A stretch of DNA of 64,000 bases from Blastocatellia bacterium (GCA_035634255.1 DASQDI010000034.1:32509-96508); one strand, 5' to 3'. Counted from the first letter of the stretch, positions 11,244 through 50,384 are shown. Translations and numbers: made by a program. The notes: generated by a model not told the origin, from the letters alone.

Positions 11244-11849
11244 ATGCTGAATGGGGTCGCTAAAATCTTACTCGTTCTAATCGTGATGGCGCTTGGTGAC
11301 ATAGCGCTTCGGACACGGTTACCATCTCCGTATGCGCAGGCTCAATCGCCCGCCGCACAACCCGTTAAAGATAACGAAGAATTAAAGCGCCTGTGCGATG
11401 AAGATCAAGCCGACCGTACCCCGCCCGGAGGGAAGCCCATAGATTGGGCGAAGGTCGGGCCGCGTGACAAAGCGCGGCTCAAACGGGTGAAGGAAATCTA
11501 CAGGCAGAACCTTTTGCGAACCGCCAATGACTACGACTGCGCCGCCACGGTCCTTCAACATGGTGACGGGCCGGAAGATTTCCTATTAGCGCATGAGTTT
11601 TGGATCGTAGCGATCAGCAAGGGCAAGAACGATAAGGATACGCTGTCGTTGGCGGCAGCTAGCGAGGACCGCTTCCTGATGAAGATTGGCAGGCCGCAGC
11701 GCTTCGGCACGCAGCTCCACTCAGAAGGGGAGGGCCCCATCGTGCTGTATCCGGTAGACGAAGGCGTGAGTGATGAACTACGGCGTTTGATGATCGGACA
11801 TTCGCTAGCAGAGATAAAGGCGCGGGTGGCAGCAATGAATAAGAAATGA
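11244..11849 (+). CDS. Hypothetical protein with N-terminal signal-anchor/signal peptide (201 aa)
   Basis: N-terminus MLNGVAKILLVLIVMALGDIAL is hydrophobic. aggga-type SD (gagggagg) upstream of the ATG. No known domain recognised. Confidence 0.5.
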   Translation: MLNGVAKILLVLIVMALGDIALRTRLPSPYAQAQSPAAQPVKDNEELKRLCDEDQADRTPPGGKPIDWAKVGPRDKARLKRVKEIYRQNLLRTANDYDCAATVLQHGDGPEDFLLAHEFWIVAISKGKNDKDTLSLAAASEDRFLMKIGRPQRFGTQLHSEGEGPIVLYPVDEGVSDELRRLMIGHSLAEIKARVAAMNKK

Positions 11850-27060: not shown

Positions 27061-27474
27061 ATGAAAAACAACACTGAAACACCGACAGTCGCGCTTAAGA
27101 CATGCAACCCATGCGGCGCACAGCTCTCGGCATCTTATCGGTTCTGCCGACTGTGCGGAGCGGACCAGAGTCTTCCGGAATCTTCCACCAAACGACTCGA
27201 CCCCACGCCGGGCCGGGATACGAACGCAAAGGGACTAGTGACGAGGACCGAGCGGGAGGCGTCATCGCAGGCAGCCGGCTACAGTTCGATTTCCGGCTCG
27301 ATAATGAACTCGCTGACCATGTCTGATCTGCCGGTCGCCTCGTCATTGATCAGGAGCCGGGCCGCCAAAAAATTCGTCACCGCGGTCATCGCGCTTCCAC
27401 TCTGGCTGATGATCATTCTGCTCTCGCCCCTCGATGCGCTCGAAGCGTCCAGACGGGTCGCCAGACAATTGTAA
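27061..27474 (+). CDS. Zinc-ribbon domain membrane protein (137 aa)
   Basis: ggagg SD 8 nt upstream of the ATG at 27061. CxxC...CxxC (CNPCGAQLSASYRFCRLCGA). C-terminal hydrophobic helix (FVTAVIALPLWLMIILLSPL). Confidence 0.55.
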   Translation: MKNNTETPTVALKTCNPCGAQLSASYRFCRLCGADQSLPESSTKRLDPTPGRDTNAKGLVTRTEREASSQAAGYSSISGSIMNSLTMSDLPVASSLIRSRAAKKFVTAVIALPLWLMIILLSPLDALEASRRVARQL

Positions 27475-27586: not shown

Positions 27587-29950
27587 TCAATTCCGTTTCG
27601 CGGCGCTCCTTAAATAAATCCGATCAATCGACCAATCGGTCGGCGTCCGCGCCTTCGCCGCGCGGGTCGCTGAGCCGATGCTGTAAAACAGTTGCGCCAG
27701 AGGCGAATCGTTTTGGCCTCTTATGTCGCCCCTTGAGCGCGCGCCCGTGAATTCGAGCACGAATGGGTCAGGCAACTCCTGATCGCTCGTCAGCAGAATG
27801 TACGTGTCCAACCCGAACGGCGGTACTAACTCGACCATACCGGCCTTGCCGAGTAATATCTCCCGCGGCTGTTGGGCGGGCGGCTTTTGGGCGTCGAGCG
27901 GAAAGCGGTTTTCCAGATTCCCGTCCTTATTAAACAGCAGAGAGGACGCGCCCTGGCTGTCTATGGAAAAGACATAGACCCATTTGCGGTTTATGATTCT
28001 GGCCCGCGCGAGCGCCTGCTCGTCGGCCACCAGCACCAGATCGTACTTATCGCCTTCATAAACAGTCCCCTCGCGCATCAACTCGCTCGCGCCGGTCCTG
28101 CGCACCGAAAGCCGGTATGGAAAGTCCGCGCTCGCGGGCGCTTGAATCTGCTGCCAGCCTTTGATGCGCGCGAGCGTCACCGCCTTGTCATGCAACTCCG
28201 CCGCGCCCGCGCCGCCCGAGCCTTCTATGGCTATCCAATCGCTGCGGGGCGGGAAGACGTATTCGGATTGCTTGTTATTATCGGCGCTGCCGGTTAATGC
28301 TTCGCGGCGCACCCACGCATACTCCACCCGGTCGCCGTCCGAACGGCCCGCGAGAAAATACTCAGCCTCCTGCAAAGTTTTGGTCTCTTCCATAGCCTGT
28401 TCGAGCTTGAGACCGTGCCGCAGTTCCCGCGACGGCGGCAGACTGATGAACACCGGTTGACCGGTCGCGGCGGCCACTTTTTTCAAGTCGAGCGGGTTGC
28501 TCAATGACTCGGCTTCGCCCGCGGGGGAAACGGATTCCCATCGCCCGCCCGCATAGATGACTACCCGTTCGGCCCGCGCCCCTGTCGGGTCGTCAACCGC
28601 GCTGATATGTTTCGCGCCGCGCAGTTGTTTAAGCTCGCGCGCGACTCGCAGGATTTCGCCCTGCTCAATCGCCGGAGGTATCCAGACTTTCAGGCCCACG
28701 CCGTCTTTCGAGACCCACCGATCCAGGATGTAGAGGTCGCCGCGCCGGATGCTCCCGGCGTCGCCTTGAATGACTTCGGCCTCGCAACCGCTCAATCCGG
28801 CCAGGCTCGTGACGCGCAGCCTGGCCCCTTTATCGTCAGGCTGGCCCGCTTTTTTCAACTCGCTGCCGACGCCCAGCCCCATCGCCAGCCCGCCTTCGAG
28901 CGTGAAGCGATTCCGCTCGACTTTGATAACGCTGGCCGCCGGCTTGTCGAGCGCCGGGTCGGGCTCGCCGCCGAAGAGCGGCCCCTTACGACGTTGCGCG
29001 TTGGCTTCCAGGGCAGGCTGCTCGTACACCTGCTCGCCTTTCATGTAACTGGTCACCCGGCTGAAGACCTGCTCGGCGGACTCGTTGGCCGACACTGACG
29101 GTTGCGACAACACCTGGCTCAAGGCCCAGGTAAAGTTGCCGCGAGGCGAGCCGTTGTACCGGCACTCTCTCGCCTGCTGATAATCCTGCGCGGCGTAGAG
29201 AAAGAGCGCGCCCCGCTCGGCGGGCGATTGCTTGAAGCTCTGCGGCTCGGCAACGTCTCGTTCGTCGAACGGCCCCGTCCGGGTGTACTCTTCGGCGAAG
29301 CTGCCGCGCCCGAGCGAGCTGCTGTGACAGCTATCGAAAATCCCCGTGATCGTTACCCCCTTGTCAATCGCCTTCAGGAAGAGCCGGGCGATCTCCTTGT
29401 CGCGGATGTCGCGCGCACCATGGTTGGCGTCCGCCGGCACTATGCTCTCGTCATAGCCGTCCGCTTCTCCGCTCCTGGAGTTCTTCACTTTCGAGCCGTG
29501 ACCCGCGTAATACAGTACGCATATGTCGCCCGGCTCGGCCTGCCGGATCAGGTGATCTTCTATGGCCTGCAAAATAGCATCGCGCTTCGCTTCACCGTCC
29601 TTGAGGACTTTCACCTCAGTGAATGCGAATTTATTAATCAGCAGCGCTCGCATTGCTTCGACATCGTTCACCGGCCCATAGAGGTTAGTGAACGCGCCGC
29701 GCATGGAGCCGCTCTTCTGGGCCGCCGCCGGCCGGCGAGTCGGCCTGCCCGCGCTCGCGCCAGGACGATCAATCTTTTCTTTCGCCTGCTCGGTCTGGTA
29801 GGTGTTGATGCCGATGAGCAGGGCGCGGCGCACAGGTTCTTTAACCGGCCGACCAGCACTGGATCGAGCCACGGTCGGGAAAGGCGCCTGCGCAAAAATC
29901 AGCGCAAGGGATACGGCAACCGATGTGAGGGTTCTATTAGAGCGGCGCAT
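27587..29950 (-). CDS. Secreted caspase-family (peptidase C14) protein with large C-terminal region
   Basis: Signal peptide MRRSNRTLTSVAVSLALIFAQA. Caspase fold signatures: RRALLIGINTYQ, NDVEAMRALL, catalytic His in CVLYYAGHGS, catalytic Cys in IFDSCHSSSLGR. Last gene of the minus-strand sigma/CHAT cluster. Confidence 0.8.
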   Translation of the reverse strand: MRRSNRTLTSVAVSLALIFAQAPFPTVARSSAGRPVKEPVRRALLIGINTYQTEQAKEKIDRPGASAGRPTRRPAAAQKSGSMRGAFTNLYGPVNDVEAMRALLINKFAFTEVKVLKDGEAKRDAILQAIEDHLIRQAEPGDICVLYYAGHGSKVKNSRSGEADGYDESIVPADANHGARDIRDKEIARLFLKAIDKGVTITGIFDSCHSSSLGRGSFAEEYTRTGPFDERDVAEPQSFKQSPAERGALFLYAAQDYQQARECRYNGSPRGNFTWALSQVLSQPSVSANESAEQVFSRVTSYMKGEQVYEQPALEANAQRRKGPLFGGEPDPALDKPAASVIKVERNRFTLEGGLAMGLGVGSELKKAGQPDDKGARLRVTSLAGLSGCEAEVIQGDAGSIRRGDLYILDRWVSKDGVGLKVWIPPAIEQGEILRVARELKQLRGAKHISAVDDPTGARAERVVIYAGGRWESVSPAGEAESLSNPLDLKKVAAATGQPVFISLPPSRELRHGLKLEQAMEETKTLQEAEYFLAGRSDGDRVEYAWVRREALTGSADNNKQSEYVFPPRSDWIAIEGSGGAGAAELHDKAVTLARIKGWQQIQAPASADFPYRLSVRRTGASELMREGTVYEGDKYDLVLVADEQALARARIINRKWVYVFSIDSQGASSLLFNKDGNLENRFPLDAQKPPAQQPREILLGKAGMVELVPPFGLDTYILLTSDQELPDPFVLEFTGARSRGDIRGQNDSPLAQLFYSIGSATRAAKARTPTDWSIDRIYLRSAAKRN

Positions 29951-30020
29951 GATGCGTTACCTCCCAAAATTTTCCAATCGATAGATTTGAAGGCGGCGCG
30001 ACATTTCCTCTTCGGGCCGC

Positions 30021-33000
30021 TTACCTCCAATTGCCGGTCAGAACGAAAGGCGACCAGTAATAGGGGTGGGTAAACGGCGCGCCCTTGTCCTGCGTGAACG
30101 GCGGCGATTGATCAGCGCCGGGGCCGGTAACCGCCGGCCCGCGCCAGAGCGGAGTCTCACCTGCTCTGTACCTGCCGTTTATCAGAGAAAGCTGCGCCTT
30201 TCGCAGGGCTTCGCCTTTGCCGACTCGCGGGGCGGCTTCGAGCTGCCCATAAAATTCGCTCATTAAAACCCGCGTCGAAGCGTCGGCCACCGACCACAAG
30301 GTTGCCAGGACCGATTTCGCACCCTGTTTTTGAGCTATCGCGCCGAAGCTTTCGATCTCCGCGCCGCTCGATTTTTCACCGGCGCTCATCGCAGTGTTAC
30401 AGGCCGAAAGCGTCAGCAGTTCCACCTCGCTGAATTTATCGCCGATCTCGTCGCGCACCGCCGCCAGCGATAATCTCCGCTCCTCCTCCTTGCCGCCGCC
30501 GAGCAGCAGGTACGAACTCGCTTCGTTTCCGGCGTTGAGGCTGAAATGGCTGGCGACGTGAACGATGCTGTAGCGCCCGAGGTGGAGCTTGAACGCCCGC
30601 AAGGTAAATTCTTCGTCGGGCAAATTCACGCCCCTGATGATGCCGCTCTTCCCTTCCGTCAGTTCCGCGCAGAAGGCTCTTTTCTGCGGGTCGTCGACGA
30701 CGCTGCATAATTCCACAGGGACCGAGGGGAGCGCGGAAAAACCGCCGAAGGGTTTCGACACGCCGACGCCGAGCGCCGTCCAGTCGCCCCGCCCACCCGG
30801 CGCGTCTTTCAGCTTGTCGAGGCTCGCCAGAGTGATGACGGAGTTGGAATACTTCTCAGCCAGATACCTCTTGCCGTCCCACAGCGCGGCGAGGGGCGCG
30901 TAACGCAGCGTGCCGTCCAGGCTCCAGACTATCGTGTCAGCTTTCACGCCTTCCAAATCTTTTTGCAAAGCGGGAGGGAGCAACTTGTCGTAAAGCTTTT
31001 TGCCCGCCGGTCGCGGGTCGAGGCTCGGGTCTTGCGCGGCGGCGCGAAATTCGGCGACCAGTTTGTTCAACTCCTCCGCTTTGATGTCAACGGTGTGCGC
31101 GCGATTGACTTTCGCGGTAGTGACGATGATGTTCAAGCGGTCTTCGCCAGCGATGGTGGAAAGGATGACCGTTCTCGGCTGCTTGAGGCCTGAGAGCAAC
31201 GCCTGCGTGCCCGATATTTGGGCCACGCGCACGTCCTCCTGCCTCTTTTCCTTGTTGAAGTATTGGCCGCTCAGTTCTTCGAAGAATCTGTTGAAGACTT
31301 TCCTCGCGTCCGTAAGCTTATTGCCGAGGTCGTCGAGGCGGGCTTGTTGCGGGAACTTCCCGACCTCATATTGCCTGCTCGCTTTCTCCAGCTCATCGTG
31401 TTCTTTGCCGACGAGGGTGATGCGGTCGGCGATCTGTTGGTAGCGTTGGTAGGCTTCGCGCTCGGGGTCGTTGAGCGGGATTTTGTCCAGCAGTTCTTTC
31501 GCGACTTTATCGCCGCGGCGCAGGTACTCGAAAAGCTCGTCTCCTTTGAGCAGGGCCAGAACCTGCTCGGCTTCGGCGATGCGCCCTTCGGCGATCAACC
31601 AGTCGGCCAGCCGCCGGTAATGCTTCTCTTTTTTTTCCAGGAAGCCCTTCCGAGAAATAGCGTCTAGGTTCTGTAATCTCTGGCGCTCCGATTGAATCTC
31701 ATTAATGGCTCGCTTGCCGTAAAAGATCGCCAGCCGCCGGTTGCCGAGCGCGTCGTGGGTGCGTGCCAATTCAGTGAGCAGCGAGCTGTACTTCGGAGAG
31801 AATGCCTCTTTGCCGCCAATGCCCACGGATTGATAAAGGGCCAGGGCTTCGTTTTGATACTTTAAGGCTTCCTGCGCTTTGCCCGCCTCCATCAGCGTCC
31901 ACCCAACGTCAGTCAAATCATCGGCGGTATCTTCATTAACGTTTCCGGTGCGGCTGATTTCAAGCGCTTGTTTGTAGTACTCGGAAGCCTTATCCCACTC
32001 TTCCAGCTTCGCCAAGGTGTATGCGACAGAGGCCGCGCTTAATCTAATAGTACGGGGCTCTTTCATGGAATGGGAAAGCGCCAGAACCTTTTCGTAATAC
32101 TCAAGAGATTTTGGATAATCTTCCATCATCCGGTAATTGTAAGCAATGCTGTCCAATCTCACCTTTTCGATGAAAGTCTCATAACCTTCATCGAAGACCC
32201 CGAGCCCTCCGATATTGGCGTTCTTCTTCGCATTCTCCGCAAAATCGGGGGACTGCAAAATTGCCAGGCTTTGATCGACACGCTCCTTGAGCCTGACCTT
32301 GTCGTTCAGTACCCAATACATCGAAGCCATAATGTACAAGGTAGAGGATTGACCGAATTTATCATCCATCTCGCGATTGATTTCCAAAGCTCTTTCCAGG
32401 TTCTTTAACGCCGCTTCATATTCGTAATTTCGCGACTGGACCATGGCGATGGAGGTCAAAGCGGTCGCCACGTTTCTTTTTTCATTTTCGAATGCGCCGT
32501 AGATTTTCAGCGATTCGGTGAAAGATTCCAGGGCCTTAGCACTATCTTTCGCCTCCCTGCTATATACCGTTCCTATTCTTTGTAGTGTTAAAGCTTCCCG
32601 GAGTTTGAATTCCGGGCCCTGAGTTTCCTGATACAAAGCGCGACGCCGTTCTAGTGATTCATTCAGGTATTTGAGGGCTTCTTCCGGCTGCCCGAAACTG
32701 TTATCAAGCGTCCCGCCAATGTCAGCCAGCGTGTCGGCCCTGAGGGTTTTAAGCGCGATGAGGGCTTGCTTTACGCCGGGAATGTTTAGGTCGGCGAATG
32801 CTTTATCCTCAAGGATTTCCCGGTAGACCGCGAGAGCCTGCTTCTGGTAATCAACATTTGCCCTCAATTCGCCGAGGTTATTATGCGTCTGAGCAATACC
32901 GCCCAGTGATATAGCTTCGCCGTTCTTCGCCTGAAGTTCTAAGAGCTTCAGTAAGTTGAGTAATTGCCGGGAGACCTCGCCTGTCCGACCTATTTTTTCG

Positions 33001-33806
33001 ACGAGGGCCGTGTCCTTCAGCTTTGCGTTCAGGGCGCGAAACCTTGTTAAGGATTCGTTTAATTTCTCCCTTGCCGCGAGGGAATCCGATTTTGATCTGA
33101 CGCTTAGTTTTTGCCCTTCCCCCAATACCTGAATCGCCTTCTTTAATTCCTGAGACGGCTCGGTGAAAAGAAGGGCGTCGTATTTATTGACTTTGACTTG
33201 TCTGACTTTTTGCGTCGTCAACTCTACCAGACCGCCCTCTCCTAACTCCCGCCAGCCCGCCGATGCTCCTTCAAGTTTCGCTATAGCTGTGTCTGATTCC
33301 CCCGCCTTATGACTCGCGGCCATCCCTTCGACGAACAATCGTTCGACCTCGACCCGCCTCCTGTCTTTCGCGGTCGCCGTCCGCGAGGCTTCGCGCCGGA
33401 TTGTGTAACCGCCCCTTTCCGCCTTCGCATCAAGGCCGCTTACTTCCAGCATGAAACTGCCAGCCTTCTCCGCCACAAACGAAATGGTTTCCGGCCCCTG
33501 CTTTCCGTTAGGGCTGTCCATCTCGCCCAGGACGTTGCCGCTCGCGTCCAGCAGCCTGAGCGTAACATCGACGCCTTTCTGCTCGGCCCGCGCCTGAAAA
33601 AACTCTCCGGCTTTCAAAGCTAATGCGTAACGGTGCGTCTCCGTGCCGGTCATCTCACGTTCAAGGGTTTGACTCGGAGGCAATTCCCGAACGCGGCCCC
33701 CGCTCGACGCCTGCCCGAAAGCGACACCAAATGACAGAGTCAGCGATATGAGCAGGGGCAGGATTCGCCGCGTGTGTGGTCTAAGGTTCGTCGTCATCTT
33801 TTTCAC
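30021..33806 (-). CDS. Secreted PPC-like/TPR-repeat/CHAT-domain protein (1261 aa), paralog 3
   Basis: GTG start with ggagaaagag SD. Signal peptide MKKMTTNLRPHTRRILPLLISLTLSFGVAFGQA. N-terminal beta-sandwich (..GYTIRRE). Long TPR array (AL.YY..AL.I... repeats). C-terminal CHAT: HVASHFSLNAGNEASSYLLLGG...LLTLSACNTA...AKSVLATLWSVADAST..LM..FY...HPYYWSPFVLTGNWR. Confidence 0.85.
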   Translation of the reverse strand: MKKMTTNLRPHTRRILPLLISLTLSFGVAFGQASSGGRVRELPPSQTLEREMTGTETHRYALALKAGEFFQARAEQKGVDVTLRLLDASGNVLGEMDSPNGKQGPETISFVAEKAGSFMLEVSGLDAKAERGGYTIRREASRTATAKDRRRVEVERLFVEGMAASHKAGESDTAIAKLEGASAGWRELGEGGLVELTTQKVRQVKVNKYDALLFTEPSQELKKAIQVLGEGQKLSVRSKSDSLAAREKLNESLTRFRALNAKLKDTALVEKIGRTGEVSRQLLNLLKLLELQAKNGEAISLGGIAQTHNNLGELRANVDYQKQALAVYREILEDKAFADLNIPGVKQALIALKTLRADTLADIGGTLDNSFGQPEEALKYLNESLERRRALYQETQGPEFKLREALTLQRIGTVYSREAKDSAKALESFTESLKIYGAFENEKRNVATALTSIAMVQSRNYEYEAALKNLERALEINREMDDKFGQSSTLYIMASMYWVLNDKVRLKERVDQSLAILQSPDFAENAKKNANIGGLGVFDEGYETFIEKVRLDSIAYNYRMMEDYPKSLEYYEKVLALSHSMKEPRTIRLSAASVAYTLAKLEEWDKASEYYKQALEISRTGNVNEDTADDLTDVGWTLMEAGKAQEALKYQNEALALYQSVGIGGKEAFSPKYSSLLTELARTHDALGNRRLAIFYGKRAINEIQSERQRLQNLDAISRKGFLEKKEKHYRRLADWLIAEGRIAEAEQVLALLKGDELFEYLRRGDKVAKELLDKIPLNDPEREAYQRYQQIADRITLVGKEHDELEKASRQYEVGKFPQQARLDDLGNKLTDARKVFNRFFEELSGQYFNKEKRQEDVRVAQISGTQALLSGLKQPRTVILSTIAGEDRLNIIVTTAKVNRAHTVDIKAEELNKLVAEFRAAAQDPSLDPRPAGKKLYDKLLPPALQKDLEGVKADTIVWSLDGTLRYAPLAALWDGKRYLAEKYSNSVITLASLDKLKDAPGGRGDWTALGVGVSKPFGGFSALPSVPVELCSVVDDPQKRAFCAELTEGKSGIIRGVNLPDEEFTLRAFKLHLGRYSIVHVASHFSLNAGNEASSYLLLGGGKEEERRLSLAAVRDEIGDKFSEVELLTLSACNTAMSAGEKSSGAEIESFGAIAQKQGAKSVLATLWSVADASTRVLMSEFYGQLEAAPRVGKGEALRKAQLSLINGRYRAGETPLWRGPAVTGPGADQSPPFTQDKGAPFTHPYYWSPFVLTGNWR

Positions 33807-33825
33807 GTCTCTTTCTCCGGCCGCA

Positions 33826-36800
33826 TCATCGCCAGTTGCCGATCAGGATAAACGAGGCCCAGTAGTGCGGGTGGGCGAAAGGGTTTTTGGCGTCTTTCAC
33901 GAAGTACGGCAGCCCGATTTTCCGCCCGCTCGATTGCGGGCCTCTCAAGCTGGGATCGTTCCCGTTACTCTTCGCCTCTTTGCCGAGTAAAGAGAACTGC
34001 GCCCGGCGGAACGCCTCGCCTTTCGACATCGCGGGGTTATCCGCCCGCAGCTTGTAGAAGAGGACCATCAATTCCGGCGTTGCCGCGTCCGACACCTTCC
34101 ACAGGCTCGCGATTACGGATTTCGCGCCAAGCTCCTGCGCGAGGAAGGCGAAGCCTTCGGCCTCTTCGCCGCTCCCGCCGCCCGTCGCCGTATCGCAGGC
34201 AGAAAGCGTCAACAGGTCCACCGCGCCGAACAGGTTGTCTTTATCCTGAAGCTCATCAAACGTCAGCTTCCCGTCGCCGGTCAGCAGGAATGAAGCCCTC
34301 CGGTCAACCGGGTTGAAGACGTAATGGCTGGCTATGTGAATGACCTGATGCGAGCCTTCGCGCCACAGGCGCAACGCCGCTTCCTTCGTGAAGTCCGTGT
34401 CGAGCCTTCGCGTGCCTTCCAGAATGCCGGTCTCTCCATCCTGCTCGCGCACGATGTCACGTATCTCGCGCTTTGCCCCCTGCAATGCGCCGAAGCTCCG
34501 ATTATCAACCGTCTTCGCCTCCGAAACGCCTAGACCGAGCGCCTTCCATTTAGCCGAGTCTTTGTCAGTCAGCCTTCGGCTCTTACCGGTGAAAACGACG
34601 TGGCGGTATTTCTCGACCAGATAAGCTTTGCCGTCATGCAAAGCTGCCATCGGAACGTATCGCAGGACGTCATCCAGGGACCACATCAGAGTCCTGTCCG
34701 CGTACCTGCCGAAATAGGTTTCCAGATCGGCTTCGAGCGTCCTATTCTGTCTGGCGGAAGTCTGGCGAAACAGTCTGTCGTAAAGCTTTTGCGCCAGGGG
34801 CCGCGGGTCGTACCTGTCAGAGCTTAAAGCCGCGCGAAACTCGGAGACGGTCCCTTCCAGCCCCGCCACATCAATTGGGTATGCCTTGCGGCCTTCGGGC
34901 GTGACGAGAATTATCCAGCCGAATTTCGATTTCGCTTTGCCCGCCTGACCGCTCTCATTCTTCGTCTTTTCCGTGCCGATCACGGTGTAGAGCGCGGCCA
35001 CGCCAGTCTTCAACTCACTCCTTAATTGCTTCATCTCGGTCTGCAGGGCTCTCGCAATATTGATCTCTTCTATTTTTACCTCGACGTCGCTTGCCGAGTT
35101 GCCGAGCGCTTCGAGCGATAACCGGAAAGCCCTGTTCGCCGCTTCAATCTCTTTTATAAGCTGGTCGAATTGCGTTCTTTTATCGCCGGGTAGAGCGCCG
35201 TTTTCTTCCTTCTCTCTTTCCAATTCGATTTGCTGACTTGCCAATGCCGCGAGTTTCTCGACGTGTGCGATCACGCTGGCTTCCGCATTGTTGTAAGGTA
35301 TGATGTCGGGAGTGCCGCCGGAATTGTCGCTGGCTCGAGTCACCTGAAGTTGTCTGAACTCAGCTTCTTTGAGCAGGTCGAGCACGGCCTGAGCTTCGGG
35401 CAAACGCCCCCGCCCGATCAGCAGGTTGGCCAGCTCGCGGTAGGCGTCGGTGACTTTCTCCCGATAAACCTCCTGTGTCTCGCGCTTCAGGGTGCGGATC
35501 GAGCCGCGCAACTGCTGATACTTGTTGACCGACTGCTTGCCGTAGAAGATCGCCAGACTCTCGTTGCCGCGCGCCCTCCACGCCGACATCAGACCTTGGA
35601 GGGCTTTCGCCTCGATGTCCTTATCGGCAATGGCGCGGGCAACGATCATGGCTTGTTGGTACGCTTCGGCTGCTTTATCGAACTCCCTGTTTTTCTCATG
35701 CAGTTTCCCCAGCGCAAGGTGAACAGCATCTTCAAAATATCTGTTCTGATATTTTTTCGAGTAATCCAGGACTTCGTTCAGGACCGGCCATGCTTTCGCA
35801 GTTTCATTCAATTCGATATAAACTTTTCCGATACCAAGCAAAGCATCTGCCTCATTACGTTTGCTCTCGGTCTCACGACTCAACCTCAAGGCTTGCTCGT
35901 TATGGATAAGGGCCTGCTTGAAGTGCTCAGGGTTTTTATTCTGTTCGCCCATTCTGCGATAGATGGCTCCGATCCCGTTAAGCTGATAAATCTCGCCTAA
36001 CTTATCGCCGATCTCCCTGCTAACTTTTAGCGACCTCTCGCGGTGCTCCAACGCCGTTTGAGTTTCGCCCAGCTCCAGATAATCGACGGCGATGTTGCCA
36101 AGAATGGTTGCTTCGTTGGCCTTTTCGCCGGTGCCCCTGGCTATGGACAACGCCTGCTCAAAATAATCAATCGACTTGCCTCTTTCACCTGTGCTTGAAG
36201 ATAAATTTGCGAGATTATTGAGGGAGAGTAATTCACCGTTTTTGTTCCCGGTTTCGCGGGAGATTGCCAGGGCGCGGTTGATGTAATTCAATGCCTTTTC
36301 GTTCTCGCTCAACACCGTATAGGCGCGCCCGATGTTATTCAGACAGGTCGCGATGGCTTCCTTATCACCTATTTTTTCGGCGATCTCTAATCCCTGATTC
36401 GTGTACTTGATACTTTCCCGCTCATCTCCCAAATCGGAATAAACCTGGCCGATATTATTGGGGATCGTTGATTCGGACGGCATGGCCCCCGTCTTGCGGA
36501 TTAATTCCAACGCCCTGTTAAGATTTTGCAAAGCCTTCCGCGGCTCGCCGAAAGCCTGATAGACGAGTGCGATGTTGTTAAGCGCGGTGGCTTCCATGCC
36601 CTCACGCTTCGTAGCTATCGCCAATTTCAATGCCTGGTCGTAATACTCAAGGGCTTTACGGATGTTGCCGGTTTCTTTATAACGAACGCCGAGGTTATTG
36701 AGTAGACTCGCTTCGACAGTTCGGTTTCGCGCTAAATCTTTTATTCTTTGCGGGGCCTGGCGGTACAGCTCTAAAGCCTTATTGAGTAACTCAATCGCCC

Positions 36801-38838: not shown

Positions 38839-38855
38839 GGTTGCCTCCGGTAGAA

Positions 38856-41800
38856 TCATCTCCAATTTCCGATCAGCACGAACGGTGCCCAGTAGTAAGG
38901 GTGTGCATGCGGCGCATTCCTGTCATAGGCGAAGGGCGGCAACTGCTTATCGCCGCTCCCGGCGGGCTCGACCTTCGGCCCGCGCCACCCTGGAGCCGCT
39001 CCCGGTTTGTAGCTTCCGTTGAGCAAAGCGAGTTGCGACTGACGCAGGGCTTCGCCTTTCGGCAGTCGCGGGTCGGCCTGCCGGGTCCGGTAAAACTTCA
39101 CCATCAATTCTTTCGTCCCCTCGTCCGACACCTGCCACAGACTTGCCAGCACCGATTTAGCGCCGAGGTATTGCGCTTTATAGGCAAACCCTTCGACCTC
39201 TTCGCCGTTCGTCTGGCCGGGGCCGTTACCCGATTTCATGACCCCGCCCGTCGCCGTATCGCAGGCCGCAAGCGAGAGCAGATCGACGTTGCGGAATAGA
39301 GTCCGGTCATTCTCAAACTCGGTCATATGCAACGCGGTGCCGTCGCCCAGAAGCAGGAAGGACAATTCTGCATTCGCCGGGTTGAACCAGAAGTGGCTGG
39401 CGATGTGAATGACTGACCTGGGAGCCAGGGCGATTTCGAACAAAGCTTCCTTCGTGAAGTCCCGGTTCATCTTGATCACGCCGGGCAATATTCCATTCAT
39501 GCCATTTGCGGAGTCTCTTTTTTTGACCAGTAGATTAATCTCGGACTCTGCGCCCGTGAGCGCGGGGAATACTAAAGTCCTTCCGTCAACCGTCACAGTC
39601 TTCGCTTCCGAAACGCCTAAGCCCAGGGCCTCCCAGCCGGGTTTAGGCAAGTCTGTCAACCTCCCGATACTTTGCGTGTTGAAAATGACATTCCGGTATT
39701 TTTCGACGAGGTACTGTTTGCCGTCGTGCAGAGCGGCCATCGGCACGTAGCGCAGGATGCCGTCCAGGGACCACATAAGGGTTTTATCCTTTTGATCCCC
39801 GATGTAGGTTTCAAGGTCGGCCGCGAGAGTGGTCTTCTGTCTCTCGGAAGTCTGCAAAAACAGTTTGCGGTAAAGCGACTGAGCCAGGGGGCGCGGATCG
39901 TACTGCGGCGACCGAAGCGCCTCGCGGAATTTGAAGACGGTCCTCTCCAGGTCTTTCGTGTCAATCGGGTAGGCTTTGCGGAACTCGCCCGTCACAAGCA
40001 AGACCCAGCCGATGGTCGCTTTTTCGCTTTCGGGCCCCGACGCCTTTTTAGCCTCGCCCGCCTTGCCGATGACCGTGTAAAGCGCGACCACCCCTTTGCC
40101 GAGTTCGGGCAGTATATTCTGCACGTCCTGCTCCCTCATTCTTTCGGCAAGTCTTCCTTTGACATCGGGCGCGGACGCGGCAAGAGTTCCGAGTGCCTGC
40201 TGCAACGCCTCCTCTGCTTTTTTTAATTCGATGCGGAGTTCGTGGAAGCGCGCCGTTTCCTCTTCGGTGTGGTTTCGCTTGCTTCTTAACTCGCCGATCT
40301 CGCGCCCCAGCGAAGCCAGGTTTTCGATAACCCTTATGACCTCTTCCTCGGCCTTGCTGTAAGGCAGGGTGAAGATCGGCTCGCCGCTGCGCCCCGTAAG
40401 CTTTCTGAATTCTTCTTCCTTGAGCAGATCCAGCACGGCCTGCGCTTCCGCCAGGCGGCCCTCGGAGATGAGGATGTCAGCCAGCGTGCGATAAGCCGAC
40501 TCTTTGTCGCTCAGGAAGCTTTGCTGAGACTCTTTATCGAAGCTCCTGATGTTGCCGCGAATCTCCTGAAAGGCATTGACCGCCTGCTTGCCATAAAAGA
40601 TTGCGAGGCGCGGGTCATTCCCCTTGCTCGACAGGGCCATTAAATTCCACAGCACTCTGCCCTCGACCTTTTTGTTTTTGATTTCTCTTGCTATCGTCAG
40701 CGCTTGCCGGTAATAGTCCTGCGCCTTCTCGGGCCGCTTTAATCTTTCATTTACATTTCCAAGCCCGTTGAGAGCGTAACTTTCACCGCGTCGGCTTCTT
40801 ACTTCTCGTGTGAGTGACAGCCCTCGCTCGTAAAAACTCCGCGCCTTTTCAGGTTGGTTTAAGTTCGAATACGCATCTCCGAGATTGATGAGAGCGTTGG
40901 CTTCATCGCCCTTTTCCTTACCCTCTCTGGCAATCGCTAACGCCTGCTCGTAATAATCTTTCGCCTTTTCGTACTGTTTCAAATTCAAGTATGTGTACCC
41001 CAAAGCGTTGCGTATTTGCCCTTCACCTTGCCGGTTCAATACTTCTTTCATCATTGCCAGCGACTGATTGTAAATATTCCGCGCTCTTTCGTTTTGGTTT
41101 AAGTCGGCATAAACAGCACCAATCGCGCTAATCGTGCCGCCTTCGAGTTCCCTGTTCTTTATTCCTTTAGCTATTGTTAGCCCATGCTCGTAGTAGTCCC
41201 GCGCCTTTTCATACTGATTCAAGTTGAAGTAAACCGACCCCAGGCTAATGAGCGCGATACATTCAAGGGCAAGGTTTTTTGTCTCCCTCGATTTTATTAG
41301 TGACTGTTCTAAGTAGCCCTGCGCCTTCTCGTATTGATTCAAATCCGAGTGAGTGGATCCCATATAAAGGAGCGAGAAGTTTTCATTGGTCGGATTGTTT
41401 ATTTCCCGAGACGCCTTTAACGCTTCCTCATGGTGACTCAGCGCCTTCTCATATCGATTCAGTTTTTTGTAAAGCTCACCGAGACTGTTGAGGATATTAA
41501 CCTCCCGGTATCTATTCGAACTCGTCCTGGCAATCGTTAACGCCCGCTCCAAATAACTTTGAGCTTTATCAAATTGATGTAGCCTTACGTAAAGGCGGCT
41601 CGCATTTGTGAGGACATCGCCCTGCCCGTTCTTATCGTTTAAGCTCGTTGCTATTTCCAGCGCCTGTTCGTAATGATCCTGCGCCTTATCATATTGTTTC
41701 AAGTCCGTGTAAAGACCCGCCAGGGCGTTCAGTGTGCTGCTCGTGTACTTATCTTTCGATCTTCGCGCAACAGAGAGCGCCTGTTCGTATAAGCTCCGCG

Positions 41801-43406
41801 CCTTTTCGAACTGCTTTAAGGCTTTATAATGGTTCGCCAACATGCCGAGAGTGAGAATTTCAAAACCCCTTTCTTTCTCCTCTCTGGCAATCGCCAGCGC
41901 CTGCTCGTAATAGCCCTGTGCTTTTTCGTTCTCCCCTGAGTTGGCGTAGCTACTTCCCAGACCGGCCAGCAGGGGAATCTGGCCGACCCTGTCCTTCAAA
42001 CTTTCTTTGATTGACAATGCCTGCTCCGAATAAGCACGTAGCTTTTCATTCTGCCCCAGGCATAAACAGGCCGTCGCAAGATTACTCAGCATGCGACTTT
42101 CGCCGTCCCTGTCTTTCAACTCTCTTTTTATCTGTAACGCCCGCTCGAAGTATTCCCGCGCCTTGTCACAGTCGGAGGTGCCTGATAATTGAATAAGCCC
42201 TAAATTGAAGAGTGTTTCACTTTCCCCCCCCTTATCCGGCATATCTTTATACGAGGCCAAGGATCGCTCGAAATAATCCTGCGCCTTCTCGTACTGGCCG
42301 AAAAAGTTGAGATGATAAATCCCCAGGAGATTAATTATGTTTCGCTCACCCCTTTTGTCTTTTGAGTCCCTGGTTATCGCCAGCGTCAGCTCTAAATACT
42401 CTTTTACCTTATCCAGATTTTGCGTGCTGGGTTTCGAGTAGGTATAAGCCAGCCTCAATAACGCGAACGATTCGCCGCTTCGGTTTTTCACTTCTCTCGC
42501 TATCGCCAGCCCTTGCTCGTAATACTCCCTCGCCTTTGCCTCCTGATTTAAGTCGTCATAAATCTCTCCCAAATTGCTAAGCGTAATGCCCTCGCCGCGC
42601 CTGTCTTTCAGCTCTCTTCTTATTGCTAATGCCTGTTCATAGTAATCTCGCGCCTTTTCATACTGGCGGAGGCCTTTGTGCGCCAATCCCAGTCCGTTCG
42701 CGGCCTTTCCTTCACTCTGTCTGTCTTTGATTTCCTGGAACTGTTTCAATGCCTGGCTGAGCGAATCAACCGCTTTCTCATTCTGATTTAAGTCGCTGTA
42801 CGCCCAGCCGAGATTTGTCAGCGTCACGGCTTCCCAATATCGGTCGCCGCTCTCTCGCCACAAACCGAGCGCCGTCTCAAATTTATTGATTACTTCTGCT
42901 GAAGCCTGTGGGTTGGCTATCTGTAAATTTCGGCCTTCGCTGAACACTTTCTCAGCAGCAACGCGCTTTCTGTCTTGCTCACTCGGCTCACGCAGCCCGA
43001 CAACGGTTATACTATAGTTGCCTGCGCCTGCATTTTGTTCGACAGGCTTGACTTCGATTTTATACGCCCCATCAATTAAGGCTATGCATGAAACCGCCTC
43101 GCGCCACAAAAGGCCGTTATGCGCATTCATATCAATCAAAAGTTTTCCGTCGGGCGCGTATAGAGAGACGATGACATCGAAGCCCGCGCTCTGATTGACT
43201 TCGGCGCGCATGAACTGTCCGGCCCTGAGATTGACTTGATAGGTGTGCGCCTCTCCGACTTTCAGAGCGCGCTCGACCGTCTGATTCAGCGACAGCACGC
43301 GAACGTCGTTCTGCGCTTGCCCGAGGGCCGAAGCGATAAACAGCCCCAGAGCCAGAGCCGCAAAGCTAAAACGTAAAGACTTCGAAGAAATAATAGGCCG
43401 ATACAT
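38856..43406 (-). CDS. Secreted PPC-like/TPR-repeat/CHAT-domain protein (~1516 aa), paralog 1
   Basis: ATG at ~43406 preceded by gggaggaa. Signal peptide MYRPIISSKSLRFSFAALALGLFIASALGQA. The ORF-track TTG start at 43496 gives a 30-aa non-signal extension. TPR array. CHAT: HIASHFWFNPANAELSFLLLGDG...LLSLAACDTATGG...AKSVLASLWQVSDEGT..LMVKFY...HPYYWAPFVLIGNWR. Confidence 0.85.
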   Translation of the reverse strand: MYRPIISSKSLRFSFAALALGLFIASALGQAQNDVRVLSLNQTVERALKVGEAHTYQVNLRAGQFMRAEVNQSAGFDVIVSLYAPDGKLLIDMNAHNGLLWREAVSCIALIDGAYKIEVKPVEQNAGAGNYSITVVGLREPSEQDRKRVAAEKVFSEGRNLQIANPQASAEVINKFETALGLWRESGDRYWEAVTLTNLGWAYSDLNQNEKAVDSLSQALKQFQEIKDRQSEGKAANGLGLAHKGLRQYEKARDYYEQALAIRRELKDRRGEGITLSNLGEIYDDLNQEAKAREYYEQGLAIAREVKNRSGESFALLRLAYTYSKPSTQNLDKVKEYLELTLAITRDSKDKRGERNIINLLGIYHLNFFGQYEKAQDYFERSLASYKDMPDKGGESETLFNLGLIQLSGTSDCDKAREYFERALQIKRELKDRDGESRMLSNLATACLCLGQNEKLRAYSEQALSIKESLKDRVGQIPLLAGLGSSYANSGENEKAQGYYEQALAIAREEKERGFEILTLGMLANHYKALKQFEKARSLYEQALSVARRSKDKYTSSTLNALAGLYTDLKQYDKAQDHYEQALEIATSLNDKNGQGDVLTNASRLYVRLHQFDKAQSYLERALTIARTSSNRYREVNILNSLGELYKKLNRYEKALSHHEEALKASREINNPTNENFSLLYMGSTHSDLNQYEKAQGYLEQSLIKSRETKNLALECIALISLGSVYFNLNQYEKARDYYEHGLTIAKGIKNRELEGGTISAIGAVYADLNQNERARNIYNQSLAMMKEVLNRQGEGQIRNALGYTYLNLKQYEKAKDYYEQALAIAREGKEKGDEANALINLGDAYSNLNQPEKARSFYERGLSLTREVRSRRGESYALNGLGNVNERLKRPEKAQDYYRQALTIAREIKNKKVEGRVLWNLMALSSKGNDPRLAIFYGKQAVNAFQEIRGNIRSFDKESQQSFLSDKESAYRTLADILISEGRLAEAQAVLDLLKEEEFRKLTGRSGEPIFTLPYSKAEEEVIRVIENLASLGREIGELRSKRNHTEEETARFHELRIELKKAEEALQQALGTLAASAPDVKGRLAERMREQDVQNILPELGKGVVALYTVIGKAGEAKKASGPESEKATIGWVLLVTGEFRKAYPIDTKDLERTVFKFREALRSPQYDPRPLAQSLYRKLFLQTSERQKTTLAADLETYIGDQKDKTLMWSLDGILRYVPMAALHDGKQYLVEKYRNVIFNTQSIGRLTDLPKPGWEALGLGVSEAKTVTVDGRTLVFPALTGAESEINLLVKKRDSANGMNGILPGVIKMNRDFTKEALFEIALAPRSVIHIASHFWFNPANAELSFLLLGDGTALHMTEFENDRTLFRNVDLLSLAACDTATGGVMKSGNGPGQTNGEEVEGFAYKAQYLGAKSVLASLWQVSDEGTKELMVKFYRTRQADPRLPKGEALRQSQLALLNGSYKPGAAPGWRGPKVEPAGSGDKQLPPFAYDRNAPHAHPYYWAPFVLIGNWR

Positions 43407-43469
43407 TGGAGCATTCCTCCCGATCAATTCAGCTTGTTTGCGCGAGATGTAAACTGCTTGAACCTTGGA

Positions 43470-43483
43470 CGAAGAACTTCGTT
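43470..43483. promoter_or_regulatory. Perfect 6-2-6 palindrome ACGAAGAACTTCGT flanked by GAACC direct repeats in the leader of the first TPR-CHAT gene; candidate operator
   Basis: Plus strand gaaccttggACGAAGAACTTCGTtcgagaacc, read directly. Lies between the anti-sigma stop (43782) and the SD-supported ATG (~43406). Confidence 0.25.
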
Positions 43484-43781
43484 CGAGAACCTTCAAATGA
43501 TCTTTCAGTGAAGAGCGGCCCGGAGTCTAACATAAATTACAGTCCCCTACTAGTAAATTTACTTACCATTCTGCCCCGCCTGTTATTAAAAGCGACGGTC
43601 ACTTTTTGCCGGGCCGCCCGACAAAATCTCCGCGCATTATCAGGTGAGAAAGTAGAAGAAATGTTACAGGGGCTTTTTTCCGGGCCTATTGAGGCTTGAG
43701 GCCGGGCCGGTCGCGGCGACAGAATTTAGATGCGGAAGGCCGGCGCGCCGGCGTCGCGCGAAGATCGGTTTAAAGCTCGCG

Positions 43782-44753
43782 TTATTTTCTGACAACGCGA
43801 ATTAAAAACTCGCCGACGCCTCTTGTCTCGTTCTGCTCCGTCACCCCATCCACCAGCAACCGGTAACCGCCCGCGGGCAGGTCCTGGGCGGGTATCCGCA
43901 GGATAATTGATCTCCCCTTCGCGGTTTTCGTGCTTGTGATCGAATCGCGCCGGACCTCTTGCCCGAGATCGTTCAGCAGGACGGTTTCATACCGGGTGTA
44001 ATCATCGCTCTTCAGGTCGAGTTGCAGGCGGACCCTTTTAGCCGCGGCGGGTATCGAGATGGTTATTTGTTTCTGCGGGGCCCCTCTGGTGATTCCGCCG
44101 GGCTCGACTTCGAGCACCGCGCTGACGAGAGTGTTCGTGGAAACCTGCTGTTCCAGCCGCTCGACATCCTGCCTCAATTGCTCTCTCTCTTGTTCGAGCT
44201 TCTCCCTCTCCGCGCTCGACGCCTCCTTCAATTCCTGATTGACGCGGGCCAGGTCCATCAACCTCTGGTTGACTTCTTCCAGGCGCCTGCTCTGCGCGGC
44301 TTGCGCGTCGGCGAGTTGCGACCGCAATCTGACGACCTCGAACCAGAGCCAGCCGCCTCCGACCAGCGCCACGAGCAGCCCGGAAACCAGAGCCCATTGC
44401 CGAAGCGGATAATCGACGCGGAAGAATTCGCGCGCCCTCTGCCAGGGCGAGACCTGATCCCGCGCCGGCGCCGCCCGATGCCTGCGGGCAAACGTCATCA
44501 GGGCGCGCGCGGAGTGAACACGCTCGCGCCGCCGGTCCGAGTTGAGGAAGTTCTTCTCGAACAACGCGCGGTTGCGGGCCGTAAGCCGGCCGTTGACGTA
44601 AGCGTCGATGATCTCATCCTCGGCGACCTGCAACTCTGTGAAAAAGTCTTCGTCTTCGAGGTAGCGGGCTTCGACCTGCTCGCGGTCCTGCGCCGGCAGG
44701 TCCCCCAGGAGATAGCGAATAAGCCGATCTTCTTGTTTAATCGCAGACATCAA
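43782..44753 (-). CDS. Putative single-pass membrane anti-sigma factor / regulatory protein (323 aa)
   Basis: Immediately downstream of the ECF sigma gene in the same orientation. Cytoplasmic N-domain (~110 aa), one TM helix (WALVSGLLVALVGGGWLWF), coiled-coil (LRSQLADAQAAQSRRLEEVNQRLMDLARVNQELKEASSAEREKLEQEREQLRQDVERLEQQ) and a C-terminal extracytoplasmic domain. No zf-HC2 Cys/His motif, hence the moderate confidence. Confidence 0.5.
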   Translation of the reverse strand: MMSAIKQEDRLIRYLLGDLPAQDREQVEARYLEDEDFFTELQVAEDEIIDAYVNGRLTARNRALFEKNFLNSDRRRERVHSARALMTFARRHRAAPARDQVSPWQRAREFFRVDYPLRQWALVSGLLVALVGGGWLWFEVVRLRSQLADAQAAQSRRLEEVNQRLMDLARVNQELKEASSAEREKLEQEREQLRQDVERLEQQVSTNTLVSAVLEVEPGGITRGAPQKQITISIPAAAKRVRLQLDLKSDDYTRYETVLLNDLGQEVRRDSITSTKTAKGRSIILRIPAQDLPAGGYRLLVDGVTEQNETRGVGEFLIRVVRK

Positions 44754-44783
44754 GACGCGCTCCCGTTACCTGAGTTCATAATC

Positions 44784-45428
44784 TCATGTGGGAATCCGCT
44801 CAAAGTGTTTCTCCGCCTCCGAATGCTCCTGCAAACACTTCGTTATACAGGTTTCCAGCCTCTCCCTGATCCGGTGCATGCGGACCCGTAAAGCCCCCTG
44901 ACTGATTCCCAGTTCTTCGGCGATTTGCTTTCGACGATTGATCTTGGCCCTTTTCTCTTCGTAGTAGTAATCGATCACGTGTTGGCGTTCGGCTTCCGGC
45001 AGAGTCTTCGCGCATCTCTCCAGACAGTCGAGCCGTCGCTCCAGCTCGATTTTTTCCTCTTCGCTCGGCGGCGGCAATCCGGCGGGAGTTCGTCCCGCCG
45101 GCAGATCGCCATCCAACCCTTCAACCCGCATCTCCGGTGACTTCCAGTACTCCCGCAACACATTGCGCGCGATCCCCGTCAGGTAAGCGGCGGGGTTCCT
45201 CACCTCTTCGCCGGCCATTATCATGCGCGCGGCGCGGTCTATAGAGATGTCAACAAGGCGGTCCGGGTCGGCGACGTTGTTACGCTCGAAGAAGTAGTAA
45301 AACCGCTGATAAATCTTCAGGTACTCCGCGCCGCGCGCGTCGGGATCAGGTGACAGACACGACAGGAATTTGTCCAGAGCTTCCTGTGTGAGTTTCCAAT
45401 CCTTCTTATAAGTGACACGGTCTACCAT
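44784..45428 (-). CDS. ECF-type sigma-70 family RNA polymerase sigma factor
   Basis: Region 2-like segment (RLVDISIDRAARMIMAGEEVRNPAAYLTGIARNVLREYW). Region 4 HTH (IAEELGISQGALRVRMHRIRERL). First gene of the minus-strand sigma/anti-sigma/CHAT/caspase cluster. Confidence 0.75.
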   Translation of the reverse strand: MVDRVTYKKDWKLTQEALDKFLSCLSPDPDARGAEYLKIYQRFYYFFERNNVADPDRLVDISIDRAARMIMAGEEVRNPAAYLTGIARNVLREYWKSPEMRVEGLDGDLPAGRTPAGLPPPSEEEKIELERRLDCLERCAKTLPEAERQHVIDYYYEEKRAKINRRKQIAEELGISQGALRVRMHRIRERLETCITKCLQEHSEAEKHFERIPT

Positions 45429-45548: not shown

Positions 45549-45594
45549 AGGGAGAGCCGGTCCGTTACTGATTGGTGACGGGCCGGCTCTCCCT
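45549..45594 (-). other. 46-nt perfect 12-bp inverted repeat (agggagagccgg ... ccggctctccct) with nested secondary pairing; possible terminator between the SDR gene and the ECF sigma gene
   Basis: Read directly. Weak U-tract (gttt) on the minus strand after the stem. Confidence 0.35.
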
Positions 45595-50156: not shown

Positions 50157-50384
50157 TAATTCACCTCTCGGTCGCCTTTTCTTTATGCCTGGATTTCGAG
50201 CTTGCTGCCGCCTCCGTCAATCATCCGGTCACCGGCCGCCGGGTCGATCCATCAGGTCGATCTATCAACCGGGCGGCCCCGGCGAGGACGTGCGCCCGCG
50301 CGTCGTAGAGCCATTTAAAGCTCTCTGCGCGGAATCTCTTTCGATGTGAGTGTAGTTATTAGTAAAAGCCCCGACCCCTCTCTT

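Follow-up and report, generated by a model that had tools for sequence, protein, structure and literature searches.

An enlarged copy of an Acidobacteriota module of ECF sigma factor, anti-sigma-like partner, and exported TPR-CHAT protease in a Blastocatellia bacterium

Gene content of the cluster

The window analyzed in this study, a stretch of 64,000 nucleotides from a Blastocatellia bacterium, contained six co-oriented minus-strand open reading frames (ORFs) at 27587-45428. They encode a sigma factor of the extracytoplasmic function (ECF) type, a single-pass anti-sigma-like membrane protein (hereafter, the partner), three proteins with TPR arrays and CHAT protease domains (chat1, chat2, and chat3), and a caspase-like protease of peptidase family C14. 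An earlier note on this DNA had described the same six ORFs, and their coordinates were confirmed. A comparison covered about 100 related loci (designated by L numbers), of which all with a named source belong to the Acidobacteriota. It shows the window locus to be an expanded version of a three-component module of this phylum that is widespread and apparently undescribed, and of which the conserved unit is a triad of one TPR-CHAT protein, the sigma factor, and the partner. This module probably controls gene expression via protein cleavage outside the cytoplasm, and the TPR-CHAT protein looks like a core signaling component rather than an output alone. The features of the locus are as follows:

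45549..45594, no strand: hairpin with a 20-bp stem between a short-chain dehydrogenase/reductase (SDR) gene and the sigma gene (terminator scan and sequence)
44784..45428, minus: sigma factor, ECF-type, 214 amino acids (Pfam, NCBIfam, family profile)
43782..44750, minus: partner, single-pass anti-sigma-like protein, 322 amino acids
43407..43781, minus: partner-chat1 gap, 375 nt, comparatively AT-rich
38856..43406, minus: chat1, TPR-CHAT protein, 1516 amino acids, H1338 and C1382 (Pfam, signal-like N-terminus)
33826..38838, minus: chat2, TPR-CHAT protein, 1670 amino acids, H1505 and C1548 (Pfam, signal-like N-terminus)
30021..33797, minus: chat3, TPR-CHAT protein, 1258 amino acids, H1084 and C1133 (Pfam, signal-like N-terminus)
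27587..29950, minus: C14 protease, caspase/metacaspase fold, 787 amino acids, H151 and C208 (Pfam, motif alignment)
27061..27474, plus: zinc-ribbon membrane protein, probable seventh gene, ~137 amino acids (weak Pfam matches, homologs at related loci)

The hairpin is terminator-like and is the 5' boundary of the cluster. Within the cluster, the intergenic gaps were 33 nt (sigma-partner), 375 nt (partner-chat1), 17 nt (chat1-chat2), 28 nt (chat2-chat3), and 70 nt (chat3-C14). The description of the genes as separated by short or no gaps therefore holds for distances of 17-70 nt and fails between the partner and chat1, where the gap would be 285 nt even with the start chosen in the earlier note. 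This gap may contain an internal promoter; no sigma-70-like promoter site was reported in it, no Rfam family matched it, and it had no bipartite motif in common with other loci. The lengths previously given for the CHAT proteins (1546, ~1670, and 1261 amino acids) were based on longest-ORF starts that are probably too far upstream, and 1516, 1670, and 1258 amino acids are likely. For chat1, the ATG at 43406 is preceded by the Shine-Dalgarno sequence GGGAGGA.

Searches with hidden Markov models found CHAT (PF12770), TPR, Peptidase_C14, and Sigma70_r4_2 above their cut-offs, in agreement with the families proposed before. The sigma factor was matched by Sigma70_r4_2 of Pfam at 29.1 bits (cut-off 25.7) and passed the NCBIfam model TIGR02937 for sigma70-ECF (45.7 versus 42.9 bits). 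Sigma region 2, which the earlier note had also named for such a search, was not matched by Pfam Sigma70_r2 at E ≤ 0.01. The family profile matched the ECF sigma-2 structure 6dxo (E 0.0019) and the sigma-2 to sigma-4 regions of SigE/SigL (positions 48-190, E ~0.04) weakly, and the SigZ model gave a weak match (E 1e-5) far under its cut-off. The length of 214 amino acids is compatible with a protein consisting of sigma-2 and sigma-4, and the exact sequence was found in a Blastocatellia metagenome-assembled genome. Two CxxxC pairs flank sigma-4, namely C135/C139 (CLERC) at its start and C194/C198 (CITKC) directly after it. All four cysteines were invariant in 16 sequences and were found in 72-75 of the 75 distinct sigma factors of the family. 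This pattern suggests an additional metal or redox layer, with a site as in CorE2/SigZ-type ECF factors, and a second input, on the cytoplasmic side.

The partner consists of a cytoplasmic helical anti-sigma domain (residues 1-92), a transmembrane helix (~119-139), and a periplasmic part with a long stalk helix to ~203 followed by an Ig/FN3-like beta-sandwich (208-321). The full-length protein had no significant match to a Pfam or NCBIfam family. However, zf-HC2 scored 21.4 bits on the N-terminal 115 residues, near its cut-off of 22.2, and PF13490 is precomputed on many members of the partner family, a few of which are named RsiW or RskA by JGI. In AlphaFold2, residues 1-92 formed a helical bundle with a predicted local distance difference test (pLDDT) score of ~90. 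These results are in line with the previous identification of the gene product as a putative single-pass anti-sigma factor. The zinc ligands of the ZAS subclass (HxxxCxxC) are absent: in the conserved N-terminal domain, neither His nor Cys occupies the positions concerned. On sequence and model, the N-terminus is assigned to the class I, non-zinc anti-sigma domains and is predicted to inhibit the sigma factor. A comparison of 88 distinct partners placed the strongly conserved positions within the cytoplasmic domain and on the beta-sandwich, and the stalk was variable.

The CHAT model PF12770 was covered nearly whole by chat1, chat2, and chat3, with E-values of 4.7e-50, 5.2e-48, and 1.6e-51 (171.1, 164.4, and 175.9 bits; cut-off 24), and all three proteins bear TPR arrays (TPR_12 in chat1, E 6e-111). 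The parts of chat1 are arranged in the order of signal peptide, PPC-like beta domain, long TPR array, and CHAT domain. As for the PPC-like domain reported earlier, it is conserved as a family across loci, although PF04151 itself (cut-off 25.9) was sub-threshold in chat3 (20.8 bits, E 7e-4) and chat2 (16.3 bits, E 0.018) and gave no match in chat1.

The CHAT His and Cys were invariant in all 21 domains aligned from the window and related loci, within the motifs V-H-x-[AS]-[ST]-H and L-S-A-C-x-T. These domains diverge deeply (25-58% identity), yet the dyad and its surrounding motifs do not vary. A 20-sequence CHAT profile matched Csx29, the TPR-CHAT protein of Craspase, in the PDB (E 2e-5) and separase weakly (E 0.3). 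The invariant His lies opposite C-H-G-E (Csx29 H615) and the Cys opposite G-A-C-E-T-D (Csx29 C658), which are the published catalytic residues of Csx29 (PMC10028731). The C14 protein matched Peptidase_C14 at E 1.2e-23 (84.5 bits; cut-off 21.4), and its motifs YAGHGS (H151) and DSCHSS (C208) correspond to the catalytic motifs of two metacaspases, Yca1 and AtMC4, in an alignment running through GHG and DSCHS; its C-terminal ~450 amino acids matched no Pfam family. The alignments with Csx29 and the metacaspases bear out the earlier claim that all four proteases possess intact His/Cys dyads.

Inspection revealed signal-peptide-like N-termini on all four proteases, given ATG starts preceded by Shine-Dalgarno sequences, and by inspection and hydropathy nearly all CHAT and C14 proteins of the related loci have them as well. 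The claim of secretion was thus sustained, and the TPR-CHAT proteins are predicted from their sequences to be exported and to sit outside the cytoplasm.

The three CHAT proteins share 31-36% identity with one another, and each has orthologs elsewhere. BLASTP identified full-length homologs of chat1, proteins of ~1,500 amino acids without Pfam matches, in L001 and L010. In L003, chat2 matches the first 1,021 residues of its ortholog, a gene cut at the contig end, with 68% identity, and the chat3 ortholog in L003 is 40% identical. The paralogs are ancient and may provide several sensory inputs. The CHAT proteins of the closest clade end, at the extreme C-terminus, in a near-identical ...HPYYWAPF(V/I)LIGNW(R/K), located at about 38859 (chat1), 33829 (chat2), and 30024 (chat3) in the window; the conservation is so strong that it mimics a DNA motif. 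In L003, a stand-alone protein of 164 amino acids (9190-9684), directly 3' of the partner gene, consists of a signal peptide and the N-terminal PPC-like domain of CHAT proteins only; it may be what is left of a truncated CHAT protein, or else a part of the module in its own right.

The cluster had been described as six genes, to which clustering of all ORFs across the loci added a probable seventh just outside that range, at 27061-27474 and convergent with the C14 gene. Its ATG is preceded by the Shine-Dalgarno sequence GGAGGAAGGA, and its product has an N-terminal zinc ribbon (CxxCG...FCRLCG), with weak Pfam matches, and a C-terminal transmembrane helix (LPLWLMIILLSPLDAL). Its homologs share 44-51% identity with the window protein and as much as 70% with one another. 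They adjoin the sigma gene and are divergently transcribed in L001, L014, L015, L016, and L036, and the gene is confined to the closest clade.

Conservation of the triad in Acidobacteriota

Word-indexed searches retrieved only 20 sigma homologs and 7 partner homologs. An exhaustive profile search with the partner alignment went much further: counted as cluster representatives at 50% identity, its matches numbered 3,673 or more at E ≤ 1e-30, and with the limit set to E ≤ 1e-10 there were 10,359. Most of the top 150 matches to the partner profile were full length (~320 amino acids), and the best 120 matches of the partner family were all about 320-350 amino acids. A scan of species-representative genomes gave 17 full-length loci, which belonged to Blastocatellia, Pyrinomonadaceae, Terriglobia, and Vicinamibacteria, all Acidobacteriota, with the exception of one contig. 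This contig (CAZOOE010000020.1, L001/L012) is labelled 'uncultured Clostridia bacterium' and is probably mis-binned.

In a metagenome sample, 80 loci had a partner-family alignment. The sigma gene lay directly upstream of the partner gene in 68 of them, and most of the others had no room for it. Where at least 700 nt of flank was available on both sides, a TPR-CHAT gene was adjacent in 25 of 29 metagenome loci. The genome loci L001, L003, L004-6, L008-L010, L013-L016, L023-L025, and L028 also have CHAT beside the sigma factor and long partner, and the context of L116 and L117 is alike. The triad recurs in genome loci of Blastocatellia, Terriglobia, and Vicinamibacteria. The link between the sigma/partner pair and the protease, for which the earlier note had looked to neighborhood conservation, is therefore strongly conserved. 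The layout is another matter, since the pair had been thought to stand in front of the proteases. The order was CHAT-sigma-partner in 32 loci, sigma-partner-CHAT, as in the window, in 9, and sigma-CHAT-partner in 2 (L086 and L112). The CHAT and sigma genes overlap in L004-L006.

The number of CHAT copies ranged from 1 to 3 per locus, with or without C14, and multi-CHAT loci recurred in the closest clade (L001, L003, L010, L014, L015, L067, and L071). A full-length C14 ortholog with 42% identity is present in L003, and C14 genes also lie beside the module in L001, L014, L016, L044, and L066, giving about 7 loci overall. C14 is thus an occasional accessory, and both C14 and the three CHAT paralogs are clade-level additions to the conserved unit. 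Further envelope proteins are encoded next to the module, namely an M48 metallopeptidase by the C14 gene in L003 (1513-5991) and an Omp85-family protein that follows the partner in L001 (11746-13155).

The Pyrinomonadaceae-type loci L009, L116, and L117 have methionine-salvage genes in common on one side of the module, with a mechanosensitive-channel gene on its other side in L116 and L117. This common chromosomal setting indicates vertical inheritance rather than a mobile island. Directly downstream of TPR-CHAT, an ankyrin-repeat protein of 463-516 amino acids is encoded in L116 (13404-14795) and L117 (13430-14980).

Additionally, a sister subfamily was found at five loci (L007, at 10001-11437, and L017, L019, L020, and L022). 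Its sigma factor is ~350 amino acids long, with an N-terminal extension of ~150 amino acids containing CxxC. Its partner is a soluble protein of 108-123 amino acids, a homolog of the long partner's N-terminal domain that lacks a transmembrane helix. None of these five loci had a CHAT gene. The lack of CHAT at loci with such short partners indicates that the exported protease co-occurs with partners having a periplasmic part. In L007, a Trans_reg_C/Tricorn/PD40 protein is encoded divergently.

Proposed mechanism and alternative explanations

The TPR-CHAT protein is regarded as a core component because it is nearly always beside the pair, in any gene order and sometimes overlapping the sigma gene, and because it is absent where the partner has no ectodomain and its catalytic dyad is invariant. 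The explanation that we consider best, with a probability of roughly 40%, is that the exported TPR-CHAT protein cleaves the partner and thereby releases the sigma factor. In the resting state, the partner would keep the sigma factor at the membrane. The TPR array and the N-terminal beta domain of the exported CHAT protein would sense a periplasmic protein or peptide cue, and the activated CHAT domain would cut the stalk or the sandwich of the partner as the site-1 protease. Intramembrane and cytoplasmic proteolysis would then free the sigma factor, which would transcribe its own operon, including the CHAT genes, as a positive feedback. Where C14 is encoded, CHAT might activate it, as SAVED-CHAT does PCaspase. 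The precedents for signal-dependent cleavage of the partner by CHAT, which is proposed on their analogy, are DdvA, Craspase, and DegS-RseA.

Autoregulation of the operon is probable, and the CHAT genes may therefore be outputs as well; it is an assumption, because the regions upstream of the operons yielded no promoter motif of the sigma type. Of the envelope-signal-triggered extracytoplasmic module put forward in the earlier note, the extracytoplasmic location and the functional link stand, whereas the direction of control is probably not simply from sigma factor to proteases. None of the findings bears on the roles in programmed cell death, multicellular behavior, or kin discrimination that the note had suggested.

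Several observations weigh against cleavage of the partner by CHAT. Gene adjacency is equally compatible with CHAT as a co-transcribed member of the regulon, and for cleavage, binding, and transcription the proposal draws on inference. The variable stalk, together with a post-transmembrane 'RLR' motif conserved in just ~50-70% of the partner family, leaves no clear cleavage site in the partner. Three loci with ample flank (L052, L057, and L060) had the sigma factor and partner and no CHAT, and no fusion of partner and TPR-CHAT occurred among the best 120 matches of the partner family. No shared bipartite promoter motif exceeded shuffled controls in 13, then 36, upstream regions of related operons. 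The CHAT profile search that matched Csx29 in the PDB failed to retrieve DdvA, and structure prediction of CHAT was of low confidence (pLDDT 41), which ruled out a fold-level comparison with DdvA.

During the promoter analysis, the sole apparent motif upstream was rejected as a promoter, as it proved to be coding sequence.

A somewhat doubtful alternative, although compatible with partner cleavage and not mutually exclusive with it, is the view of the earlier note, that the pair senses an envelope signal in another way, and that the exported TPR-CHAT and C14 proteins are regulon effectors remodeling or degrading envelope or foreign proteins with no role in sigma release. The window fits this explanation in its layout, with the sigma factor and partner in the lead, chat1-chat2-chat3-c14 behind them at spacings of 17-70 nt, and a 375-nt gap ahead of chat1 that could hold a sigma-dependent promoter. 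A copy number of 1 to 3 for CHAT, with or without C14, is also what effectors would show. ECF operons commonly contain their own targets, and context cannot separate regulators from targets (PMC7826278). Nevertheless, the same type of protein lies almost always by the pair in any order, even between sigma factor and partner, and is lacking where the partner has no periplasmic part. No shared promoter motif was found in the upstream regions mentioned above, and it is left unexplained how a partner with a small Ig-like ectodomain would do the sensing.

An anti-phage or conflict role is unlikely. It holds that TPR-CHAT senses a periplasmic phage or competitor protein, that the sigma factor turns on a defense regulon, as has been proposed for DdvA-DdvS, and that C14 is an abortive-infection executioner. 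All experimentally studied CHAT-sigma links are in defense, and the C14 protein matched the 'caspase' model of PADLOC (E 4.8e-19). The GC content of the CHAT genes (0.47-0.56) is also below that of the flanks (0.60-0.66), although the low value (window 30000-44000) could reflect either TPR amino-acid composition or a foreign origin. However, PADLOC gave only generic TPR and caspase matches, with no CRISPR, CBASS, or other defense-system model matched, and the flanking genes are housekeeping genes, including those for SDRs, cyanophycin synthetase, and NDH-2. Moreover, the syntenic setting of the Pyrinomonadaceae-type loci argues for vertical inheritance, and in soil Acidobacteriota the family is both uniform and very abundant.

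Least probable is a non-catalytic role, in which TPR-CHAT is a periplasmic scaffold or an RseB-like co-anti-sigma that binds the partner ectodomain and alters its stability without cutting; the large TPR platforms and the conserved surface positions on the beta-sandwich of the partner fit protein binding, and for DdvA the cleavage is only proposed and a dyad mutation is expected to be silent in unperturbed cells (PMC11506125), but a dyad and motifs invariant in 21 of 21 domains at 25-58% identity are hard to explain without catalysis.

A bolder version of partner cleavage, which we consider quite unlikely in its entirety, is a periplasmic caspase-style cascade. Several TPR-CHAT initiators, each responding to a distinct extracytoplasmic protein cue, would cut both the anti-sigma factor, freeing a metal- or redox-gated Cys4 ECF sigma factor, and, where present, a C14 executioner. 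If true, both transcription and large-scale periplasmic proteolysis or cell death would be coupled to envelope sensing by this cascade. Initiator/executioner caspase logic would have its first counterpart outside the cytoplasm, and ECF signaling would gain a three-component class that is new and very abundant.

ECF sigma factors constitute the third major mode of signal transduction in bacteria, and to our knowledge the mechanism by which most anti-sigma factors sense signals is not known. Here, the likely sensor is a caspase-like protease that is exported and whose gene adjoins that of its presumed substrate, in a large module family (3,673 or more clusters of partners at 50% identity) of one of the most abundant soil phyla. 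The idea of CHAT as a site-1 protease is directly testable in this module, in vitro and in a heterologous host, because protease and anti-sigma factor are separate proteins; for DdvA, the undefined trigger and the fusion of both parts in one protein stood in the way of such a test. The module also provides a handle on the role of many TPR-CHAT and caspase homologs of Acidobacteria, and it allows CHAT-to-C14 cascades to be probed outside the cytoplasm and outside phage defense.

Elsewhere in the window, an HtrA/DegP-type serine protease (Trypsin_2 and PDZ) is encoded at 20172-21359 on the plus strand, 22 kb away from the module; proteases of this type make the site-1 cut in other ECF pathways. 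Another ECF sigma factor, a canonical one with clear Sigma70_r2 and r4_2 matches (10038-10733, minus strand), is unrelated to the CHAT module, and a DUF2935 protein is encoded downstream of it (8942-9853). The region 47505-51338 (minus strand) appears to be a nitrogen-reserve polymer locus, in which the gene for a cyanophycin synthetase of 883 amino acids lies beside a Peptidase_S51 (cyanophycinase-like) gene. At 176-5980 (plus strand), a protein of 1934 amino acids with 12 DUF7933/DUF11 repeats and HYR and Ig domains is probably a giant surface or adhesin-like protein.

Comparison with known systems

No description of this module was found in the searchable literature, where only the DdvA paper came up. 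The earlier note had stated that no characterized function existed for such an architecture, which does not hold for its relatives, since DdvA-DdvS (PMC11506125), Craspase (PMC10028731), and SAVED-CHAT (bioRxiv 10.1101/2023.06.23.546230), which connect CHAT or caspase proteases with ECF-like sigma factors, have been studied experimentally.

Two groups of ECF sigma factors were compared by description only. In ECF238 (CorE2/SigZ), both the linker and a short extension at the C-terminus have conserved cysteines, and there is no anti-sigma factor (PMC7826278). The cysteine pattern resembles that of the sigma factor studied here, whereas the present family always has an anti-sigma partner. CHAT-domain proteins are part of the conserved gene context of ECF54 (PMC7826278, PMC8999054), similar to our module, but this group is actinobacterial and without an anti-sigma factor.

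In the DegS-RseA-RseP-sigmaE pathway and other ECF pathways of regulated proteolysis, a signal-sensing periplasmic protease is the first to cut the single-pass anti-sigma factor, and intramembrane proteolysis then frees the ECF sigma factor. The site-1 protease of such pathways is a serine protease (DegS, PrsW), whereas the candidate here is a cysteine protease of clan CD that has a TPR sensor and lies in the same operon.

In the type III-B system of Haliangium ochraceum, SAVED-CHAT activates the C14 protease PCaspase, which is encoded beside a sigma factor (bioRxiv 10.1101/2023.06.23.546230). Genes for CHAT, for a caspase homolog of family C14, and for a sigma factor thus stand together, as in the window, and the activation of C14 by CHAT indicates that two-tier cascades exist in bacteria. 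However, that system is cytoplasmic, is triggered by cA3 via SAVED, has no membrane anti-sigma factor, and its PCaspase cuts the sigma factor itself. The CHAT proteins of the window have no SAVED domain, as Pfam found only TPR and CHAT behind a PPC-like N-terminus, and C14 is an occasional accessory, present in ~7 loci.

Craspase, a type III-E system, is similar in that a TPR-CHAT protein is encoded with an ECF-like sigma factor and its inhibitor. Its Csx29 cleaves Csx30, the inhibitor of the ECF-like CASP-sigma (PMC10028731), and cutting of the inhibitor relieves the sigma factor. By sequence profile, Csx29 is also the closest solved CHAT protein (E 2e-5), with aligned catalytic residues. Unlike the proteases here, which carry signal-peptide-like segments, Craspase is cytoplasmic and is activated by RNA through Cas7-11, and Csx30 is unrelated to our partner. 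No cas genes were found in the window or in the related loci.

The closest parallel is offered by DdvA-DdvS of Myxococcus xanthus. DdvA is a single-pass anti-sigma factor with a periplasmic TPR-CHAT region and a His/Cys dyad, proposed to cleave itself as the site-1 step before RseP, and DdvA-like proteins have been reported in Myxococcota and one Comamonas species only (PMC11506125). Both systems combine an ECF sigma factor, a single-pass anti-sigma factor, and a large periplasmic TPR-CHAT with the canonical dyad, and in both a site-1 cut by CHAT followed by RseP-type intramembrane proteolysis is proposed. The anti-sigma factor and TPR-CHAT are one polypeptide in DdvA, whereas they are encoded by separate genes here and in all related loci. 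The CHCC zinc site of the DdvA anti-sigma domain is missing from our partner, which has its own stalk and Ig-like ectodomain. In addition, CHAT spans the full Pfam model here but lacks three helices in DdvA, and 1-3 CHAT paralogs, with or without C14, are present. DdvA-DdvS controls a CBASS/CRISPR-Cas island, of which none lies near the window locus according to PADLOC and the housekeeping neighbors, and the present module is a very large family in Acidobacteriota. By analogy, this module would be a split relative of DdvA-DdvS outside defense islands and the periplasmic counterpart of the Craspase-Csx30-CASP-sigma system.

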